DNA from: an uncultured bacterium
GTDB lineage: Bacteria; Hydrothermota; UBA3072
Direction: 5' to 3'
Assembly (NCBI GenBank): GCA_964418485.1
Contig: CAYQMH010000004.1
Span: 2,173-66,172, forward strand
Length of the DNA: 64,000 nt
The position numbers were made by a program, and so were the translations under genes. Shown one piece after another: positions 5,144 to 53,690 of the stretch (positions within the stretch are counted from its first letter, which is position 1; each line of letters begins with the position of its first letter). The notes below the pieces were generated by a model. It was not told the origin of the DNA. It did no database searches and worked only from the letters and a program-made list of their open reading frames with translations.

Positions 5144-6277
5144 ATGTTTTTATTTTATTTGTTTACTATCGGTATTAACGTAGATTTTCAGATTGATAGA
5201 GATACAAACTCTATTCCTTATGTTATCGTAAACTACGGTGTGCCTTACTCTGATTTAATATTCAAAAAGATTGATACTATTTACACTGGAGAGATAATGG
5301 CTTCATTGGTTTTGAAAAAAGATAATTATCAATTAGGAGGGAAAAGCAGTAAAAGTAAAATTTCAGTGTCCGAATACCGGAAAACGGTTTCCGATCATTT
5401 TTATCACAAAGGTTCAATGAGAATGAAAATCCCCGAAGAAAAAATAGAGGTTGTTTTGAGAGTTTCTGATCGTAATTCAAATAGAGTATGGAGCAGGTCT
5501 AAGAAATTAGAAGTCTCAAAGTTAAAATCGACGGACATAGGATCTATAAGATGGCTTTCCGATCCTTCAAGAGAGGTTGTTACTAATAAAGATACGATCA
5601 GAATTAGGCTGAATCTTTTCAGCTTTGAGGTGGGTGAAACGCGCTTGCAGTTTTATTTTGCCGGTGAGGGGAGTGAAGTTTATTTTAAAAGGGATACAGT
5701 TCTACCCGATAAGAAGAATCAAAATGTGGAAGTTAGTATACCTGCGGATAGATTCAAGGAAGGCTCTTATGAATTTATTGCAAAAGTGAATAACATCAAT
5801 AAAGAAGAAACTGTTAAGAAATCTATTTCTTTTAGAGTTTGGAAACCTTTTTTTGAGTCGAAGAGATATATTGAAAGGGTCAGGCAGGTTGCTTATATTT
5901 CATCTGGAGGGGAGGAGAAAAAGTTACTTAATGCAAGAGTTGAAGAACGGGAAAAAGTCTGGAATGAATTCTGGGAGAGTAAGGATCCGACACCCGAAGA
6001 CGGAGTAAATGAGTTTATGATAGAATATTTTGAGAGAGTAGATTACGCAAATAAAAATTTCACTCAGGGTTCTCTTGTTGAGGGATGGAGAACAGATAGA
6101 GGTAAAGTTTACATAATTTTAGGCCCGCCTGATTATGTTGTAGATGAGCCTTTTAATCCCAGCGGAAATGCCTATCAGATATGGTATTACTATGAGAGGG
6201 GATACGATTTGATTTTCGTTCAGAGATATATTACTGGAGATTATTACTTGCAAAATCCACCACCTGAGGTCTGGTAA
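5144..6277 (+). CDS. GWxTD-domain protein
   Basis: C-terminal 'GWRTDRGKVYIILGPPDY' = GWxTDRG signature (TIGR04514-like). Confidence 0.6.
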   Translation: MFLFYLFTIGINVDFQIDRDTNSIPYVIVNYGVPYSDLIFKKIDTIYTGEIMASLVLKKDNYQLGGKSSKSKISVSEYRKTVSDHFYHKGSMRMKIPEEKIEVVLRVSDRNSNRVWSRSKKLEVSKLKSTDIGSIRWLSDPSREVVTNKDTIRIRLNLFSFEVGETRLQFYFAGEGSEVYFKRDTVLPDKKNQNVEVSIPADRFKEGSYEFIAKVNNINKEETVKKSISFRVWKPFFESKRYIERVRQVAYISSGGEEKKLLNARVEEREKVWNEFWESKDPTPEDGVNEFMIEYFERVDYANKNFTQGSLVEGWRTDRGKVYIILGPPDYVVDEPFNPSGNAYQIWYYYERGYDLIFVQRYITGDYYLQNPPPEVW

Positions 6278-40831: not shown

Positions 40832-42010
40832 TTAGTTTATAAGAGAGGGGAGAGCTACTGAGTTATGTGTAAAATAACCGCTTATTTCTTCGATATGTTT
40901 TAATGCCTTAAAGAATGCATCCGTGGTTTCGGGGCAGAAATGTTCGCCTCTTTCTTGATGAATCATAGCGAATGTTTTAGAAAGGGAGAACGGTTTTTCT
41001 CTATATGGTCTATCTGAAGTAAGAGCATCAAAAAAATCAGATAAAGCTACTATTCTGCCCGATAAAGGTATTTTTTTTCCTTTAAGACCCCTTGGATAAC
41101 CTTTCCCATCCCATCTTTCATGATGGGTATAAGCTATCTCGGCGGCAGTCTTAATTATTTCTGATTTAGAATCTTTCAGAAGTTTAAATCCAAGCGTGGT
41201 GTGTCCTTTCATTATTTCCCATTCCTCCGCGTTAAGTTTGCCGGGTTTGTTGAGTATCTTATCCGGAATACCTATTTTGCCTATATCATGCAGAGGGCTG
41301 CTTCTATAAATAGTTTCCACCAGATCATCTTTTAGCCCTAAAGTTTCGGCTATTATTTTTGAGAAGATTGCGACTCTTTTAATATGATCTCCGGTTTCTT
41401 TGTCTTTATATTCGGCAGCTTCACCGAGTACGAAAATTGTTTCTAATTGCGCGGATTCAAGTTCGTCTGTAAGCTGAGCATTTCTTATTGCTACAGCCGC
41501 CTGTGAGGCGAGAGATTCGGTTAATTTTTCATCTGCTTTGCTAAAAGGTTTTATTTTCCCTCTTTCGGTTTTGTTTATAAGTTGAAATACTCCTACTAAT
41601 TGTCGTTTTCTGTCTATAATAGGTACTGTTAACATCGATTTGCATTTATAGCCTGTTTTTTCCTCGAATTCCGTATTATGACAGTAGGGACGGCCTTTTA
41701 TGGCATTTAAATCTTTTATATTTAATATTTTTTTATTTTTAGCACTCCAGCCCGCAATGGATTTGTTTGATATTGGAAGGGCATGTGGGGCAATCAAGTC
41801 AAGGAAATTTTTCTTACCCATTTTTTTTTCGAGGGTAAGATTACGTGAAACTCTGAATTCCAGTTTGTTATCGTTCTTAAGGTAAAATGTTCCGGCGTCC
41901 GCTTTACAAAGTTTAGAGGTATCTTCGAGGATTACATGAAGCAGTATGGAGAGGTCTCTTTCCGCTGCTAATTTGATACCTATTTCGATTAATGTATCGT
42001 AATTACTCAT
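40832..42010 (-). CDS. GAF-domain HD-GYP phosphodiesterase (c-di-GMP)
   Basis: N-terminal GAF; HD '..LHDIGKI..'; 'HHERWDGKGYPRGL' HD-GYP signature. Confidence 0.8.
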   Translation of the reverse strand: MSNYDTLIEIGIKLAAERDLSILLHVILEDTSKLCKADAGTFYLKNDNKLEFRVSRNLTLEKKMGKKNFLDLIAPHALPISNKSIAGWSAKNKKILNIKDLNAIKGRPYCHNTEFEEKTGYKCKSMLTVPIIDRKRQLVGVFQLINKTERGKIKPFSKADEKLTESLASQAAVAIRNAQLTDELESAQLETIFVLGEAAEYKDKETGDHIKRVAIFSKIIAETLGLKDDLVETIYRSSPLHDIGKIGIPDKILNKPGKLNAEEWEIMKGHTTLGFKLLKDSKSEIIKTAAEIAYTHHERWDGKGYPRGLKGKKIPLSGRIVALSDFFDALTSDRPYREKPFSLSKTFAMIHQERGEHFCPETTDAFFKALKHIEEISGYFTHNSVALPSLIN

Positions 42011-42357: not shown

Positions 42358-42648
42358 CTAATTTGACCATGGGGTGCGGCCACCACCGCCTCTTCCGAAA
42401 TTTTCAGTACGAGGTCGAGCTTTAGTTACTTTCAGTTCTTTTCCTTTGAGTTCTTTGCCGTTTAAACCGGCAATTGCTGCTTCTGCTTCGCTTTCCTTTG
42501 GCATTTCAACAAATCCAAAGCCTCTATTTTCGCCTGTGTACCTGTCTTTGATTAGTCTAACAGAAGTTAGCTCACCGTAAGATGAAAATTCTTTATTCAT
42601 TTCTTCTTCGGTCAATTGTGATGAAATGTTACCTACATATATATTCAT
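42358..42648 (-). CDS. RRM-domain RNA-binding protein with Gly-rich C-terminus
   Basis: RNP-2 'NIYVGNI', RNP-1 'RGFGFVEM'; GRGGGGR tail; start chosen at MNIYVGN. Confidence 0.85.
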   Translation of the reverse strand: MNIYVGNISSQLTEEEMNKEFSSYGELTSVRLIKDRYTGENRGFGFVEMPKESEAEAAIAGLNGKELKGKELKVTKARPRTENFGRGGGGRTPWSN

Positions 42649-42867
42649 ATTACCTCCTTTTAGGTTTGAATATTTACATGTTTTCGTAAATGTAATTAAA
42701 TCCGAATACAATCCTGCAGAAAAAGTATTGAGATGTCTAACCGGCAAAACCAGAATGGAGATAAAAAAGTATTAACAATTATATTCCGAACGATCTTGAA
42801 GGTTCCATAACCTACATTTACTGCGTCTATAATACTTGATTTTCAAGAAAAGTCAAGGGGGGGATTC

Positions 42868-43015
42868 ACCACAGAGGTCACAGAGCAAAACAAAACACAC
42901 AGAGAGTACAGAGAAAAAAAGTATTTTTTTGTTTTTAAAACCCACTTCCCCGCACAAAATTATTCTCACGCAAAGTCACAGAGAACACAAAGAAAAAAAT
43001 ATTTGTGTTTTTAAA
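42868..43015. repeat. Composite intergenic repeat (CACAGAG array - CCCACTTCCCC - AAAATTATT - CACAGAG/CACAAAG)
   Basis: caccacagaggtcacagagc..acacagagagtacagag..gtttttaaaacccacttccccgcacaaaattattctcacgcaaagtcacagagaacacaaag. Confidence 0.85.
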
Positions 43016-44473: not shown

Positions 44474-44477
44474 TGAA

Positions 44478-44529
44478 CAAACAAAGCACACAAAGACACA
44501 AAGAAAATAGGACGCAGATGAACGCAGAT
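44478..44529. repeat. CACAAAG array + 23-nt motif copy 3 (44507-44529)
   Basis: caaacaaagcacacaaagacacaaagaaaataggacgcagatgaacgcagat. Confidence 0.85.
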
Positions 44530-44610
44530 TTAAAAGAATTTTTTGTTGTTTTATACCTCTGACTTACTAATTCTTAATACTCAAATTATATAAAATCTTT
44601 TCACATTTCA

Positions 44611-44679: not shown

Positions 44680-44709
44680 AAAAATAAGTCCCCTACTTTT
44701 ATTACTTCA

Positions 44710-45378
44710 TCATCTCCTTTGACGACACTTTTTGTGTTCGCGCGCATTTTCTAGAGTAAAAATTAAGTCCTCACCATCACCAATAGAGGGGATATATTGA
44801 TACGTAGTGCGTGATTTCCAGAAGTGTTCCTCTATATCGCCGAGAAGTTTTTGAATCTTTTCCAGAATATTCTCAATATAAGTCCGACTAATACCGGGTA
44901 GAGGGTCAGAGTGATATTGAAGTGTGGTTTCAAGATCTTCATGTGCAAGAAGGCGATTCCGTACCTTTCGTAATGGCTCATAATAGCCCTTAAGTTCCTT
45001 CAATTCTGACTGCCATTTGTCGAATAGAATCGTATCTATGGAGGGTTTTAACTTATCTATTAAATAATCCAAAGATACATTTTTTTTACCACGCGATTCT
45101 TTAGGATCCATGAATCGAGAGATTGCTAGTATTACATCGTGGCGCATAATACGATCCAATAATCCAAAGAATGAAGATGCAGCCCAGTTTAAAAGACCTA
45201 CACGTTCAGGAGAAGTCCCAAATAGGGATTTATAGTTTTGCCAATTCAAGTGTAAGTAAGCAACATTGGTCAAAAGCTCATAAAATAACTCTCCCGTTCC
45301 CTTTGGAAAGAGTGCACGCGCTTTTTCTCGAACCTCTTCCGGAGTCTGATGATTCTTCATTTTCTTATTCGTATTCAT
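44710..45378 (-). CDS. Putative HEPN-domain protein (Abi-like; RNxxxAH motif)
   Basis: 222 aa; 'LRKVRNRLLAHEDL' fits the HEPN Rx4-6H (RN..AH) motif near the C-terminal third; no other family recognised. Confidence 0.4.
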   Translation of the reverse strand: MNTNKKMKNHQTPEEVREKARALFPKGTGELFYELLTNVAYLHLNWQNYKSLFGTSPERVGLLNWAASSFFGLLDRIMRHDVILAISRFMDPKESRGKKNVSLDYLIDKLKPSIDTILFDKWQSELKELKGYYEPLRKVRNRLLAHEDLETTLQYHSDPLPGISRTYIENILEKIQKLLGDIEEHFWKSRTTYQYIPSIGDGEDLIFTLENAREHKKCRQRR

Positions 45379-45519
45379 TTTATAATAAAAATTTAAAAAA
45401 GCTTACTGATAAGTCAATAGACTATGTCCGGGAACGCTGTGACTTGAGAATCGCAAGACGTGAGTCAAAAAAATGTCGTAGCAGTTTAATATAGATTTTA
45501 AACTCAATTCTGAAAACCC

Positions 45520-45549
45520 TTGACATCCTACCCACTTTTGAGGTATATT
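45520..45549 (+). promoter_or_regulatory. Sigma70-like promoter (TTGACA-N18-TATATT) for the Cys-rich/DUF559 nuclease gene
   Basis: cTTGACAtcctacccacttttgaggTATATTgtg in the divergent intergenic region. Confidence 0.4.
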
Positions 45550-45615
45550 GTGAAGGAGGAAGCAACAATTTAAAGTTCAAGAAGTGGTCACTATCGTTCT
45601 TGTTGTTAAGAAAAG

Positions 45616-46614
45616 ATGAAAGATATTGCTTGTAAAGATAACACAATAGCTGAAGAGAAGGGACTGCCCTATCCAATAGTATTATATCCCAAGCATTATG
45701 GAGTATTTATAGGCTTTAAAAGGAATCTTACAGATTCACAAGTTTTTTTCTGCTCATGTTTTAAAGAAGCAATAGTGAATTACATAAAGCATCAACTGGA
45801 AAATCCTAGTATTGGAACATATGGTAATGGTCAAAAAAAATTCTTTCTGGATTATGGTAAGTTTCCTACGAACTTTATTCAGCAGATAAAAAATTATCCA
45901 CAAAACGATAAAATTGTACAAATGTTTCACTTTGAAAACAAACTATGTCACGGATGTAATAATTCTACGCCTTCATATAGATATTGTCATGAAATGTATG
46001 GCTCGGTTTTCAAACAAAATTATGGATGGTACATTAATAAACAAGCCTATGAATGGGGTATTATAGGAAATGAAGTTAATTTTAAATTATGCCCGGATGA
46101 AATCATAGACTTATTAAAAATAGAGCGTAAAGAGTACTTTAATTTGTTCCAAGAACTCATATCAAGTAAAAAGTTAGAAAAAGCGCTTGAATTACAGAGT
46201 AAATTTAATAAACAACAAAGAAAAATCTGGAATGTTATAGAAAATGAAGTTAGAGGAAGATTTGGACATAAGAAAATAGGGGAAGCATGGACTAGTGAAA
46301 CAATCCTTTATTACATAATTGAAAAACTTTATCCGGAAAGAACTATATTTCGTCATTTTCGCCCAGAATTTCTGGAAGGATTAGAAATAGATATATTTAT
46401 AAAAGAATTTAATTTAGGCATCGAATATCAGGGAATACAACATTATAAACCAGTAAAACATTGGGGAGGAGAAGCTGCGTTAAAAAAATTAAAAGAGAGA
46501 GATGATAAAAAGAAAAAAATTTGCGAATCACAAAATATAAATTTGATTTACTTTAAGTACGATGAGGATCTAAGTGAAGAATTTGTTTCGAATAGACTTA
46601 AACAATATATCTAA
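45616..46614 (+). CDS. Cys-rich N-terminal domain fused to a DUF559/Vsr-like PD-(D/E)xK endonuclease domain
   Basis: C-terminal 'FRHFRPEFLEGLEIDIFIKEFNLGIEYQGIQHY...ERDDKKKKICESQNINLIYFKYDE' matches the DUF559 pattern (..vDF....l.IE.DG.qH...D..RD..L...G..vlRf); N-terminal Cys/His clusters 'FFCSCF', 'CHGCNNS', 'YCHEMYG', 'CPDE'. Confidence 0.55.
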   Translation: MKDIACKDNTIAEEKGLPYPIVLYPKHYGVFIGFKRNLTDSQVFFCSCFKEAIVNYIKHQLENPSIGTYGNGQKKFFLDYGKFPTNFIQQIKNYPQNDKIVQMFHFENKLCHGCNNSTPSYRYCHEMYGSVFKQNYGWYINKQAYEWGIIGNEVNFKLCPDEIIDLLKIERKEYFNLFQELISSKKLEKALELQSKFNKQQRKIWNVIENEVRGRFGHKKIGEAWTSETILYYIIEKLYPERTIFRHFRPEFLEGLEIDIFIKEFNLGIEYQGIQHYKPVKHWGGEAALKKLKERDDKKKKICESQNINLIYFKYDEDLSEEFVSNRLKQYI

Positions 46615-46659
46615 CAACATAAAATCCCTGCTAATCGTGTCCTTATCCTGTCTTGTATT

Positions 46660-46822
46660 AGGGTTATGGGATTGGTTTCGAACAACACAAATATATTTTT
46701 TTCTTCGTGCCTTAGTATCTTTGTGTGAGATTGATTTTGGGTCGGGGGTTGGGTATTAACGAAAAAAATCTCTGTGTGCTCTGTGTGTTTGGTTTTTCTC
46801 TGTGCTCTCTGTGGTTCAATCT
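46660..46822. repeat. Composite intergenic repeat, reverse orientation (CTTCGTGCCTTAG - CTTTGTG - GGGTCGGGGGTTGGG - CTCTGTG array)
   Basis: cttcgtgccttagtatctttgtgtgag..ttgggtcgggggttgggtatt..ctctgtgtgctctgtgtg..ttctctgtgctctctgtgg. Confidence 0.85.
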
Positions 46823-46889
46823 TTTTTTCTATGGTTTTTATACCAGGGCTATACTTGACTTTCTTTCGGGTTTGCCTTATTATTTTTAT

Positions 46890-47237
46890 ATGAGAACATT
46901 AGAAGAAATAAAAGTATTAAGGAAAAACGAAAAGGAAGCATTGAGTGAATTAAAATCTCAACTTAAACAGAGAATTCCGGATGCGGAAATTATATTATAT
47001 GGTTCAAAAGCAAGAGGAGATTCTGAAGAGTTGTCGGATATAGATATATTGATTCTTATAGATAAAAAGGTAGATAGAAAACTAAAAGAAAAAATCGTTG
47101 ACATAAGGTATGATATCGAATTGAAATATGATGTTGTCTTTGGACTTGTTATTGAAAATAAGGATTTCTGGGATTCTTCGTTAGCTAACGCAATGCCTTT
47201 CCATAAGAATATAGAGAGAGAAGGTGTTCTTCTTTGA
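46890..47237 (+). CDS. Minimal nucleotidyltransferase (MNT) family protein, TA-antitoxin-like
   Basis: 'ILYGSKARGDSEELSDIDILILID' = GSxARG..(S)D[IV]D NTase signature; start chosen at MRTLEE. Confidence 0.8.
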   Translation: MRTLEEIKVLRKNEKEALSELKSQLKQRIPDAEIILYGSKARGDSEELSDIDILILIDKKVDRKLKEKIVDIRYDIELKYDVVFGLVIENKDFWDSSLANAMPFHKNIEREGVLL

Positions 47238-47641
47238 AAAAAGAGTTTATAGATCTCACAAAATACAGATTAGAGAAAGCGCAGAATACACTATCAGACG
47301 CAAAGAAATATATCGAAGAAGCTACTCCTGAATCAACAGTAAACAGAATTTATTATGCAATGTTTTACGCGGTTAATGCTTTACTCATAGCAAATGGTTT
47401 ATCATCTACAAAACATTCCGGAGTTAGAGCTATTTTCAATAAAGAATTTATAAACGAGGGACTAGTAAAAAAAGAGCTCGGCAAATTTTACTCCGAGATG
47501 TTTGACAATCGGCAGGAAGGCGATTACAGAGATTTTGTAAAATTCGAAAAGGAGGACGTGAAGTTTTGGCTTGAGAAAGCCACTGAGTTTGTAGACGTAG
47601 TCGAAAGTCTGACCAACAAAGCGATTAAAGAAAGTAAGTAA
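47234..47641 (+). CDS. HEPN-domain protein (PF05168-type), partner of the MNT
   Basis: 135 aa; 'VNRIYYAMFYAVNALLIANGL..KHSGV' typical HEPN helical core; overlaps the MNT stop. Confidence 0.75.
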   Translation: MKKEFIDLTKYRLEKAQNTLSDAKKYIEEATPESTVNRIYYAMFYAVNALLIANGLSSTKHSGVRAIFNKEFINEGLVKKELGKFYSEMFDNRQEGDYRDFVKFEKEDVKFWLEKATEFVDVVESLTNKAIKESK

Positions 47642-47709: not shown

Positions 47710-47905
47710 ACTTTGTGTCTTTGTGCCTTAGTGGCAAAATTAGGATTTCGGATTTAGGGGATGGGATTTAGTAAAAAAAGATTTGTGTCATTCGTGTTAT
47801 TTGTTGTTTCTAATCTTGGGAGGTGGGTGTTAAACAAATTATGATTCTTTGTTGTTTCTCTGTGTTCTCTGTGTGTTTAGTTCTTCCTCTGTGGTCTCTG
47901 TGGTT
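47710..47905. repeat. Composite intergenic repeat, reverse orientation; internal segment homologous to 53540-53650
   Basis: ctttgtgtctttgtgccttagtggc..attaggatttcggatttaggggatgggatttag..gatttgtgtcattcgtgttatttgttgtttc..gggaggtgggtg..ttctctgtgttctctgtgtg..ctctgtggtctctgtgg. Confidence 0.85.
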
Positions 47906-49067
47906 AAAAAGCGAAAAATAAATATCCGCCGATGTCGAAACCATTCTCGTTTGTCAGGCCATAAATGTAATCACCTTCTATGCCCACTTTTAAATTGTTT
48001 CTTAAGGCATAACCTAAATCGGCGCCGATAAAGTAATTTTCGGTACCGTTGCTGTATCCGTATATATTAGCACTTATTAATTCTGAAAAAACGGTACTTA
48101 AACCAGCCCTCAAGATATAATCGTAACCGGATTCTAAGGGGTATTCAAATTCAAAAAATGTTTCTCTATATGTTCCTTTTACACCGATAAAGTCTGAAGA
48201 GTTGTTTAAATAGTGAGAATAGATCAGAGATAATGGTAAAATACTTTTTGATTGACCGGACTCTACTCTGTAATATGTATCGGTCGACGCGTATTCACGC
48301 AGGTACTGCGGAGATTGGCAGTATAAATAAGCGGTTCCTGTTTTATTCAATAGATTCCCTTTTATATATAGGTCATAAATCGGCAAAAAGTAAATTAATT
48401 CGGGGTAGACCTTCTCATCGAACCAGACTGCACCGGCTTGAATAGGATATTTTTCGTATAAAACTTTTGCATTGAAATCTATGAAAAATCCAGCCTGGAT
48501 ATTAAACTTAAATGGACTATATTTAAAGTTGATATCGGCAACTCCTATGAGTGTATCGGAGTATACACCGGAAAAATCAAAATCGATTAAATCATATATG
48601 TTTCCTATATTGAATTTATAAACCGGTTTATGTAATTCTCCGCCGTAGACAGCTCCGTTAACGTAAAAATTTTCTACAGAAGTTCTTGAGAAAATTTGTA
48701 TGGATGAGTTTTCTGCGGTAGAGTTCCGGGTAGAATTCAATCCGACTTCCAGGGGATAAAAAATTTTTCTGCTGTAACCGAGAAGATAACCTCTGAAATA
48801 TGTTCCGGCAACGCCTTCCGCCCGTAAGCCTATATTTCTATCAATTATTTTTTTATCTCTAACTTCGAAGACGGGCAACCCTTTTTTAGTATTTATGATG
48901 GAAGGTGGAAGATATTCTGACTCAAACGGCAAAGACTGTTTTTTTATGGGTTTGACTTTAATTTTTCTCTCCCCGTACACTTTTACTTCGGGAATATCCA
49001 GAATGTCAGCATTTAAATTAGATACTAAGAAAATTAAAATTGTAGAAAAAGCTGAAATCTTTCTCAT
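47904..49067 (-). CDS. Outer-membrane beta-barrel protein, hypothetical
   Basis: Signal peptide 'MRKISAFSTILIFLVSNLNA'; alternating beta-strand pattern; C-terminal 'YLFFAF'. Confidence 0.5.
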   Translation of the reverse strand: MRKISAFSTILIFLVSNLNADILDIPEVKVYGERKIKVKPIKKQSLPFESEYLPPSIINTKKGLPVFEVRDKKIIDRNIGLRAEGVAGTYFRGYLLGYSRKIFYPLEVGLNSTRNSTAENSSIQIFSRTSVENFYVNGAVYGGELHKPVYKFNIGNIYDLIDFDFSGVYSDTLIGVADINFKYSPFKFNIQAGFFIDFNAKVLYEKYPIQAGAVWFDEKVYPELIYFLPIYDLYIKGNLLNKTGTAYLYCQSPQYLREYASTDTYYRVESGQSKSILPLSLIYSHYLNNSSDFIGVKGTYRETFFEFEYPLESGYDYILRAGLSTVFSELISANIYGYSNGTENYFIGADLGYALRNNLKVGIEGDYIYGLTNENGFDIGGYLFFAF

Positions 49068-52349: not shown

Positions 52350-52580
52350 CGACCCACAACCTTAAAACAACAAAAATATTCTCACACAAAGACACAAAGA
52401 ACACAAAGCCCTTCCACACAACCCTTATATTATGTTTGTTTTAACTTCCCAACCGCCTAACTTTCTAACGTCCTAACTAAAATAATTACCCCAGAGAACA
52501 CAGAGGAAAAAAACTCACAGAGACCACAGAGTTTTTTGTTGTTTTTTTTAACTGCTAACTACTCTCTATTTACTATTTAA
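52350..52580. repeat. Composite intergenic repeat (CACAAAG array - CCCTTCCACACAACCC - CTAACT units - CACAGAG array - TTAACTGCTAACT)
   Basis: ctcacacaaagacacaaagaacacaaagcccttccacacaaccc..ctaactttctaacgtcctaact..ccccagagaacacagagg..ctcacagagaccacagag..ttaactgctaactac. Confidence 0.85.
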
Positions 52581-53460: not shown

Positions 53461-53690
53461 GTTAGTAGAAAGTAGAGAGTAGTGAGTAGTAAAAAAACAA
53501 AAAATCTTGTGACAATCTGTGTAATCTTGTGGCAATTTTTAGGGATTAGGATTTTGGGTTTGGGATTTAGAAAAAACAAACAAGAAATATTTGTGTGATT
53601 TGTGCTATTCGTTGTTCCTTGTTTTTATTTTTGAAATTTGATTTGTAGTTTTGTATTTTGATATTTGATTTTTACATTTTTTTGAAGCCT
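53461..53690. repeat. Intergenic repeat (GTAGWGA tandem; GGATTAGGATTTTGGGTTTGGGATTTAG; TTGTGTGATTTGTGCTATTCGTTGTTCC)
   Basis: gttagtagaaagtagagagtagtgagtag..ttagggattaggattttgggtttgggatttag..atttgtgtgatttgtgctattcgttgttcc..tttgatttgtagttttgtattttgatatttgattttt. Confidence 0.8.

Follow-up and report, generated by a model that had tools for sequence, protein, structure and literature searches.

A mobile family of Vsr-like nucleases with a conserved Cys4 domain, represented in an uncultured Hydrothermota bacterium

Introduction

In a stretch of 64,000 nucleotides from an uncultured bacterium (GTDB lineage Bacteria; Hydrothermota; UBA3072), taken from NCBI GenBank assembly GCA_964418485.1 (contig CAYQMH010000004.1, positions 2,173 to 66,172 of the forward strand) and called here the window, we analysed a gene for a protein of 332 amino acids (aa) and found it to belong to a widespread family of two-domain nucleases. 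In these proteins an N-terminal domain, in which four cysteines are kept throughout, is followed by a helical linker and a C-terminal nuclease domain of the Vsr/EDxHD type. This molecular reading, namely a metal-stabilised recognition domain joined through the linker to a nuclease predicted to be active, is well supported, while the biological role is less certain. With a probability of about one half, we regard the protein as a stand-alone, horizontally mobile DNA endonuclease, whose most likely role is defence or conflict between genetic elements, in which it would cut invading or competing DNA. The positions of all features in the window are collected in Table 1.

A widespread two-domain family

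The open reading frame (ORF) was picked out by a first-pass annotation of the window, and all the motifs quoted there, namely FFCSCF, CHGCNNS, YCHEMYG, CPDE, FRHFRPEFLEGLEIDIFIKEFNLGIEYQGIQHY, ERDDKKKK and NINLIYFKYDE, are in its translation. Its status as a gene is borne out as well. A database search gave 403 homologs at E<=1e-3, of which the best 120 are almost all full length with 43-92% identity, and the ratio of nonsynonymous to synonymous substitution rates (dN/dS) is 0.11 against a 92%-identical ortholog in a related metagenome-assembled genome (MAG; locus L001). Because of these homologs and this ratio, the ORF is more than a chance one: it is a true gene under purifying selection.

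The same annotation had proposed an apparently new fusion, and in this respect it was mistaken. When a profile of the N-terminal domain was searched with HMMER against 1.84 billion representative proteins, it matched 516 clusters (counted at 50% identity) at E<=1e-3 and 393 at E<=1e-10; the nuclease domain is also present in 118 of the best 150 representatives, the other 32 being nearly all short fragments. A scan of about 185,000 genomes, one per species, gave 319 loci, spread over phyla of the candidate phyla radiation (CPR), Bacteroidota, Chloroflexota, Planctomycetota, Firmicutes, Proteobacteria, Spirochaetota, Armatimonadota and Halobacteria; Halosimplex salinum has two of them. Plasmids of Acinetobacter (WP_069119646.1), Arcobacter, Vibrio, Priestia, B. 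thuringiensis (strain Bt407, WP_001256704.1) and Haladaptatus carry homologs as well, and so do phages of C. tetani (39% identity) and SPbeta-like phages of Staphylococcus. Decayed copies are seen at two loci, one split (L062) and one truncated (L065). Moreover, the PHROGs collection already holds the family as phrog_19778, function unassigned, which the window protein matches in two stretches (E 5e-67). The two-domain architecture is thus a widespread, conserved and horizontally mobile family, not a one-off fusion. A minority of its members carry extra N-terminal domains (TerB_N, ankyrin, HhH, LRR), and these fusions are sensor-like. In public records the proteins are called "hypothetical protein" wherever they are named, most entries being nameless, and the family has no Pfam, NCBIfam or PADLOC model.

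The C-terminal nuclease domain

An alignment of 36 family members, named A1, is the basis of the statements on invariance and of the AlphaFold2 model, whose mean predicted local distance difference test score (pLDDT) is 90.6. The C-terminal domain of this model is a restriction-endonuclease-like alpha/beta core, and the closest structures are 1cw0, 3hrl and 3r3p, with Vsr on top; all three structures share group 58, "VSR, DUF559, DUF2726", in the PD-(D/E)XK classification of Steczkiewicz et al. (2012). Seven residues, E228, D259, E270, Q272, H276, D296 and K299, are invariant in the 36 members and kept in at least 93% of 118 divergent representatives. In the homing endonuclease I-Bth0305I the EDxHD motif is formed by E170/D196/N208/H213/D222, which correspond to E25/D51/H64/H69/D97 of Vsr (PMC3239194). 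The equivalences proposed in Table 1 give a spacing of 31/13/4/20 here, against 26/12/5/9 in I-Bth0305I and 26/13/5/28 in Vsr; they are derived from position and spacing, secondary structure and non-significant hhalign registers, not from a residue-level superposition. Judged from the retained residues, the nuclease looks catalytically intact.

Which branch of the clade the domain belongs to is a separate matter. When its profile was compared by hhalign with E. coli YcjD, residues D259, E270, Q272, H276 and D296 fell in the YcjD register at E 0.05 and a probability of 1%; with Vsr the ERD motif alone paired, not significantly, and with a single DUF2726 protein sequence nothing reached significance. 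The Pfam family DUF559 (PF04480) has no match in the window protein at E<=10 and is not among the families listed for the 36 relatives at E<=1; DUF2726 matches weakly in 3 of these 36. Searches of the window protein against NCBIfam and PDB sequences gave nothing meaningful, and HMMER detected no sequence-level similarity to 3r3p. There are weaker significant matches in PHROGs, phrog_559 (1e-17), phrog_9084 (2e-11) and phrog_7140 (2e-9), with annotations of HNH endonuclease (1e-17, aa 104-322), homing endonuclease (2e-11, 6e-6) and intron-encoded nuclease (2e-9). Because these phage homing, HNH and intron-encoded nuclease families are the nearest sequence relatives, the placement of the domain in the EDxHD/Vsr radiation, rather than in DUF559 in the Pfam sense, is supported. 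Thus the earlier assignment to a DUF559, Vsr-like PD-(D/E)xK endonuclease is supported as to the Vsr-like fold and clade, and is not supported as to the Pfam family.

The same subtype of C-terminal domain also occurs behind DUF723/DUF4379 treble-clef zinc fingers, in a protein of a Bacteroidales MAG (L088:6507-8069) with 48% identity over the core (blastp, E 5e-12). A study of 2025 described a "large unrecognized outgroup of EDxHD/Vsr HEGs", HEGs being homing endonuclease genes, encoded in phage group I and II introns (PMC12350094), and our family falls within this radiation with a different N-terminal module. As a side observation, two Bacteroidales MAGs (L088 and L089, 4651-8072) carry in tandem two different nucleases with the same C-terminal domain, one of 610 aa that lacks Pfam domains and the other of 521 aa with the DUF723/DUF4379 fingers.

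These kinships bring up the principal rival explanation, that the gene is a free-standing homing endonuclease gene, or one recently decayed or domesticated. According to it, the N-terminal domain reads a long DNA site, the Vsr-like domain breaks alleles lacking the gene, and repair copies the gene in. The nearest characterised relatives of the C-terminal domain, the EDxHD homing endonucleases together with the phage homing and intron-encoded families, argue for it, and so does the intron-encoded outgroup with its DUF723/DUF4379 member. The gene contexts described below bear on it in both directions.

The N-terminal domain and the linker

Residues C46, C48, C111, H112, C114 and C124 are invariant in 36 of 36 family members, and C159 is kept in at least 90%. 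When the most divergent architectures were aligned (proteins of 457-645 aa from Flagellimonas, a delta-proteobacterial MAG and a Bacteroidales MAG, and a 548-aa protein of an SPbeta-like phage), invariance was left only at C46, C48, C111 and C114. This CxC...CxxC tetrad indicates a single structural metal site, which would most simply hold zinc. The suggestion of the first-pass annotation that the clustered Cys and His residues could bind zinc is therefore a reasonable one in view of the conserved cysteines. The accompanying expectation, a zinc-ribbon fold in front of a restriction-endonuclease-like core, was confirmed by the model for the core and not for the ribbon. Modelled alone, residues 1-168 reach a pLDDT of 81.7 and a predicted template modelling score of 0.80, and this model has no structural match and no Pfam, PDB or BFVD relative; sequence and profile searches of PDB with the whole protein and with each domain gave no significant match either. 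The domain is unusually conserved, with a mean column identity of 57% across phyla, and its conserved aromatic residues in A1 are Y24, Y28, F34, Y128, W138 and Y139. The N-terminal module of this nuclease family thus appears to be undescribed. At residue 113 (45952-45954) the window protein has Gly, giving CHGC, in place of the Glu (CHEC) that the 92%-identical ortholog shares with at least 90% of the family.

Several candidate identities were examined and set aside. The one Pfam family to match the window protein, below its threshold, is DUF4211 at aa 84-133 (E 5.6e-4, 20.5 bits against a gathering threshold of 27); it is seen in only 3 of 36 members, which we take as a coincidence of the CxxC knuckle. 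A likeness to the Fe-S motif of SdhB (CxxC..PSY..Y.G..Q.Y.W) seen in PDB searches at E 0.05-0.5 is not significant, and C124 is not universal; nothing was found in support of a 4Fe-4S site in the domain. Reading "CHECN" as an HNH motif fails too: the match to phrog_559 spans the knuckle and the Vsr-like domain and includes no HNH core, and the SPbeta-like phage homolog has another residue in place of H112.

In the model the linker consists of two helices, and relatives vary in this region (A1 columns 230-310) by insertions of up to about 30-70 aa. The NCBIfam match to Phasin in this part (E 0.004) is compositional.

Gene contexts and mobility

In the window the nuclease gene stands back to back with a gene of AbiU2-type HEPN, and the two make up a cassette whose counterpart lies in the related MAG (L001 7081-9159) between ilvD and a DUF2784 gene. 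This pairing also recurs at two further loci (L002 and L004), and the flanks of the three loci are unrelated. By this comparison the two genes are co-transferred as a divergently transcribed two-gene cassette. The dN/dS of the AbiU2 gene is 0.29. At either end the cassette borders on a copy of a short CACAGAG/CTCTGTG intergenic repeat; these repeats may be marks of cassette boundaries, or else terminator- or repetitive extragenic palindrome (REP)-like elements. The same repeats are carried by the L001 genome, and in the window an inverted pair of them (42868-42914 and 46769-46815; 47 nt, 85% complementary) brackets accessory genes.

A horizontal origin had been proposed earlier from the promoter of the gene, and this argument does not hold. 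What supports such an origin is the shared cassette with unrelated flanks. The TTGACA-N18-TATATT site is present as claimed. The pattern TTGACA-N(16-19)-TATATT has three occurrences in the window, where chance would give 0.11; besides the nuclease gene, carA-carB and rplM-rpsI-rpsB each have one in front, so that the supposed contrast with promoters of core genes fails. Sigma-70-like promoters are normal for core genes here and are therefore uninformative on foreign origin, and promoter type was rejected as a sign of it.

A further reading is a protein that cuts or binds RNA, as the Vsr-like domains of RAP/FASTK do, perhaps acting with the adjacent HEPN RNase. We hold this very improbable, since the full acidic and histidine catalytic set of the DNA-cleaving Vsr/EDxHD enzymes is conserved, the relatives at the sequence level are DNA homing nucleases, and the AbiU2 pairing is confined to close relatives, not being seen in the more distant homolog loci.

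At the level of the whole family, all-against-all clustering of 762 neighbouring ORFs revealed no conserved partner gene, only lineage-local synteny; tyrosine and serine recombinases recur among these ORFs, at about five loci each. About 80 loci have essentially 80 different flanks, with no interrupted host gene. Neighbours elsewhere include Mrr_cat with Zn_ribbon_Top1, DUF2726, SMODS, DUF6602, SduA_C (Shedu), FRG, TIR beside an integrase, HSDR_N, HNH and a ParB-methylase, and family copies in CPR genomes of about 1 Mb adjoin Mrr-like genes. An adjacent cognate DNA methyltransferase is absent from the window, and one ParB-methylase is met among 20 sampled neighbours. At five loci of Peptostreptococcaceae, Acidaminobacter and Fusibacter (L067, L068, L070, L071, L073) the family gene lies in stable synteny directly downstream of genes for a Sir2-like deacetylase and QueC/QueD/QueE-like proteins; this setting of 7-deazaguanine synthesis is the sole conserved chromosomal context seen for the family.

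This synteny, with Vsr as the top structural match and the conserved aromatics of the N-terminal domain, which could make a pocket for a lesion or a base, might speak for a housekeeping-type nuclease of DNA repair, nicking mismatches in the manner of Vsr or processing damaged or branched DNA, with the N-terminal domain as lesion sensor. Such a role is nevertheless improbable. The gene is rare, with 319 loci in about 185,000 species genomes, and is carried by plasmids, phages and cassettes; no Dcm-type methyltransferase is linked to it, and the own zinc site and intercalating Trp residues of Vsr are not evident.

The homolog of the C. tetani phages is encoded immediately upstream of terS, where these genomes have a mosaic boundary. 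Phage phiCT9441A (KM983329.1, about 17016) is 99.7% identical to the homolog-bearing phage locus (L012) up to the start of the homolog (about 5889-5992), and beyond this point it diverges, having another terminase and no homolog. Because the identity ends at the start of the homolog, the gene marks a recombination boundary between the early and packaging modules. A hotspot for homing-endonuclease genes is on record at this site, just upstream of the terminase.

The absence of the gene exactly there in so close a relative counts in favour of a homing endonuclease gene, and the sporadic distribution, the split and truncated copies and the two copies in Halosimplex fit such a gene as well. The cellular copies tell against it. 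The loci, about 80 of them, have no common flank or target gene, and no copy is seen within an intron, an intein or an interrupted gene. Homing endonucleases with different targets diverge in the recognition domain, whereas the presumed recognition domain here is conserved across phyla. Strong purifying selection on the gene and its stable residence beside Mrr-like genes in CPR genomes likewise argue against homing, which we consider a possible explanation for the family but a doubtful one.

Table 1. Features of the nuclease gene, its product and its surroundings. Positions count from the first letter of the window.
Feature	Position	Strand	Remark
Nuclease gene	45616..46614	+	332 aa and stop, ATG start; two-domain nuclease family member
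Sigma-70-like promoter candidate TTGACA-18-TATATT	45520..45549	+	66 nt upstream of ATG; 11/12, best match of the region
N-terminal family-specific domain, aa 1-168	45616..46119	+	beta-rich start, then helices; no known fold relative
C46-S47-C48, first half of Cys4 tetrad	45751..45759	+	strand-to-helix junction; invariant in A1 and divergent architectures
C111-H112-G113-C114 knuckle, second half of Cys4 tetrad	45946..45957	+	family consensus CHEC
Helical linker, aa 169-202	46120..46221	+	model helices 171-183 and 187-215; possible dimerisation element
C-terminal Vsr/EDxHD-type PD-(D/E)xK nuclease domain, aa 203-332	46222..46611	+
E228, start of helix alpha-1	46297..46299	+	proposed equivalent of Vsr E25 and I-Bth0305I E170; in 116/118 representatives
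D259, beta-2	46390..46392	+	proposed metal-binding Asp (Vsr D51, I-Bth0305I D196)
E270-Y-Q272-G-I-Q275-H276, EYQGxQH motif, beta-3	46423..46443	+	Q272 at the "x" position
H276	within 46423..46443	+	proposed general base (Vsr H69, I-Bth0305I H213)
R295-D296-D-K-K299, "RD..K", helix alpha-2	46498..46512	+	D296 proposed second metal-binding Asp (Vsr D97, I-Bth0305I D222)
AbiU2-type HEPN gene	44710..45378	-	divergent to nuclease gene; Pfam HEPN_AbiU2 E 1.2e-14
2.09-kb cassette	44685..46773		AbiU2-HEPN and nuclease genes only; 2,090 bp, 91% nucleotide identity to the L001 counterpart
CACAGAG/CTCTGTG intergenic repeats	42868-43000, 44475-44554, 46769-46824, 47848-47908, 52370-52513, 53588-53617
Classical MNT (NTP_transf_2) and HEPN toxin-antitoxin pair	46878-47641		immediately downstream of nuclease gene; MNT also matches PADLOC candidate family PDC-S09 (E 4e-20)
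ORF, 426 aa	43193-44473	+	flanks islet; no Pfam match; signal-peptide-like hydrophobic N-terminus
ORF, 387 aa	47904-49067	-	flanks islet; no Pfam match; signal-peptide-like hydrophobic N-terminus
Small RRM_1 (RNA recognition motif) protein	42358-42747	-	adjoins GAF-HD gene
GAF-HD (HD_5) signalling protein	40832-42010

Biological role

The role in defence or conflict is favoured because the loci have neither a flank in common nor an interrupted target gene and the recognition domain is unusually conserved across phyla, and because the contexts are often defence islands or cassettes, with occasional sensor-like fusions. In the window itself the AbiU2-HEPN gene and the MNT/HEPN pair make up a context of defence type. 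As we picture the mechanism, the N-terminal domain, held by one Cys4 metal site (most likely with zinc), would recognise a nucleic-acid target, the helical linker may mediate dimerisation, and the C-terminal domain would cut DNA by the Vsr mechanism, with D259 and D296 binding Mg2+ and H276 as the general base assisted by E228 and Q272. Self DNA would be spared by a Type-IV-like or some other rule. The nuclease would have descended from the homing-endonuclease radiation of Vsr-like nucleases, and its gene, which has no obligate partner, travels as accessory cargo, in this window within the cassette shared with AbiU2-HEPN.

Several points weigh against a defence enzyme of this kind. The window protein matches 0 families among the models of PADLOC-DB v2, several neighbours of family genes are housekeeping genes, and the association with defence islands is qualitative. 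A lone nuclease needs a means of sparing self DNA, and none was identified. Furthermore, the closest characterised relatives are homing endonucleases, the C. tetani phage homolog sits at a mosaic boundary upstream of the terminase, in a hotspot for genes of that kind, and the catalytic mapping leans on spacing, secondary structure and hhalign registers below significance.

A bolder proposal, which we think rather unlikely, is that the conserved Cys4 domain reads nucleic acids in a way of its own, recognising a modified base, a DNA structure or some feature peculiar to phages, and that the family makes up a new class of restriction or defence nucleases, consisting of a single protein and independent of methyltransferases, in bacteria including CPR, in archaea, on plasmids and in prophages.

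Significance and comparison with known systems

What appears to be new here is the partner domain; the nuclease chemistry is ordinary, and the family is large and unannotated. About 500 clusters, from CPR to haloarchaea and with plasmids of Acinetobacter, Vibrio and Bacillus thuringiensis, encode a protein which is nameless, lacks a Pfam model and has no fold relative for half of its length. A definition of the family would bring annotation to this large set of hypothetical proteins and enlarge the known partners of nucleases by a metal-dependent recognition domain of new structure; it would also contribute to the question of how cellular genomes put Vsr-like homing nucleases to other uses. 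Should the enzyme prove site-, structure- or modification-specific, it might also serve as a reagent. The payoff is moderate, since the catalytic chemistry is conventional and the broader radiation was flagged by the 2025 paper (PMC12350094).

Among the systems known to us, Type II restriction-modification differs by its adjacent cognate DNA methyltransferase, which the window lacks. Type IV enzymes of the PvuRts1I/AbaSI type are nearer in organisation, both they and the present protein being stand-alone nucleases with a putative reader domain and no cognate methyltransferase; however, the order of domains is reversed, and the reader here is not SRA-like and matches no known fold that binds modified bases.

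DUF559 (PF04480; E. coli YcjD, N. gonorrhoeae NGO0050/3hrl) and Vsr (PF03852) share with the family the PD-(D/E)XK clade and the core topology; hhalign sets the motifs in the register D...E-x-(D/Q)-G-x-x-H...(R)D without reaching significance. In contrast, their Pfam hidden Markov models are unmatched by the family and both are small single-domain proteins, and Vsr, unlike the family, is linked to Dcm and has an internal zinc site of its own.

With the EDxHD homing endonucleases (I-Bth0305I, PDB 3r3p; the Hef type of phages) the composite catalytic motif E, D, x, H, D is common, as mapped by position and secondary structure; the EYQGxQH of the family, with Q at the "x" position, is a point of difference. 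The Cys4 domain stands where those enzymes have NUMOD or helix-turn-helix repeats, for which the protein and its 36 relatives show no Pfam match. At the same time, the gene lies outside any intron or intein and the cellular copies have no common homing locus, only the C. tetani phage copy being at a typical hotspot.

A parallel in architecture is the CapR/DUF4379/DUF723 outgroup (PMC12350094; L088:6507-8069), in which a nuclease of the same C-terminal subtype likewise has a Cys-based metal module in front. There the module is made of three to five treble-clef repeats of about 60 aa, whereas here it is one module of about 165 aa with a single CxC...CxxC tetrad, and no CapR-type model, DUF723 or DUF4379 is among the Pfam families listed for the 36 members. 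Both groups consist mostly of unannotated hypothetical proteins associated with mobile elements.
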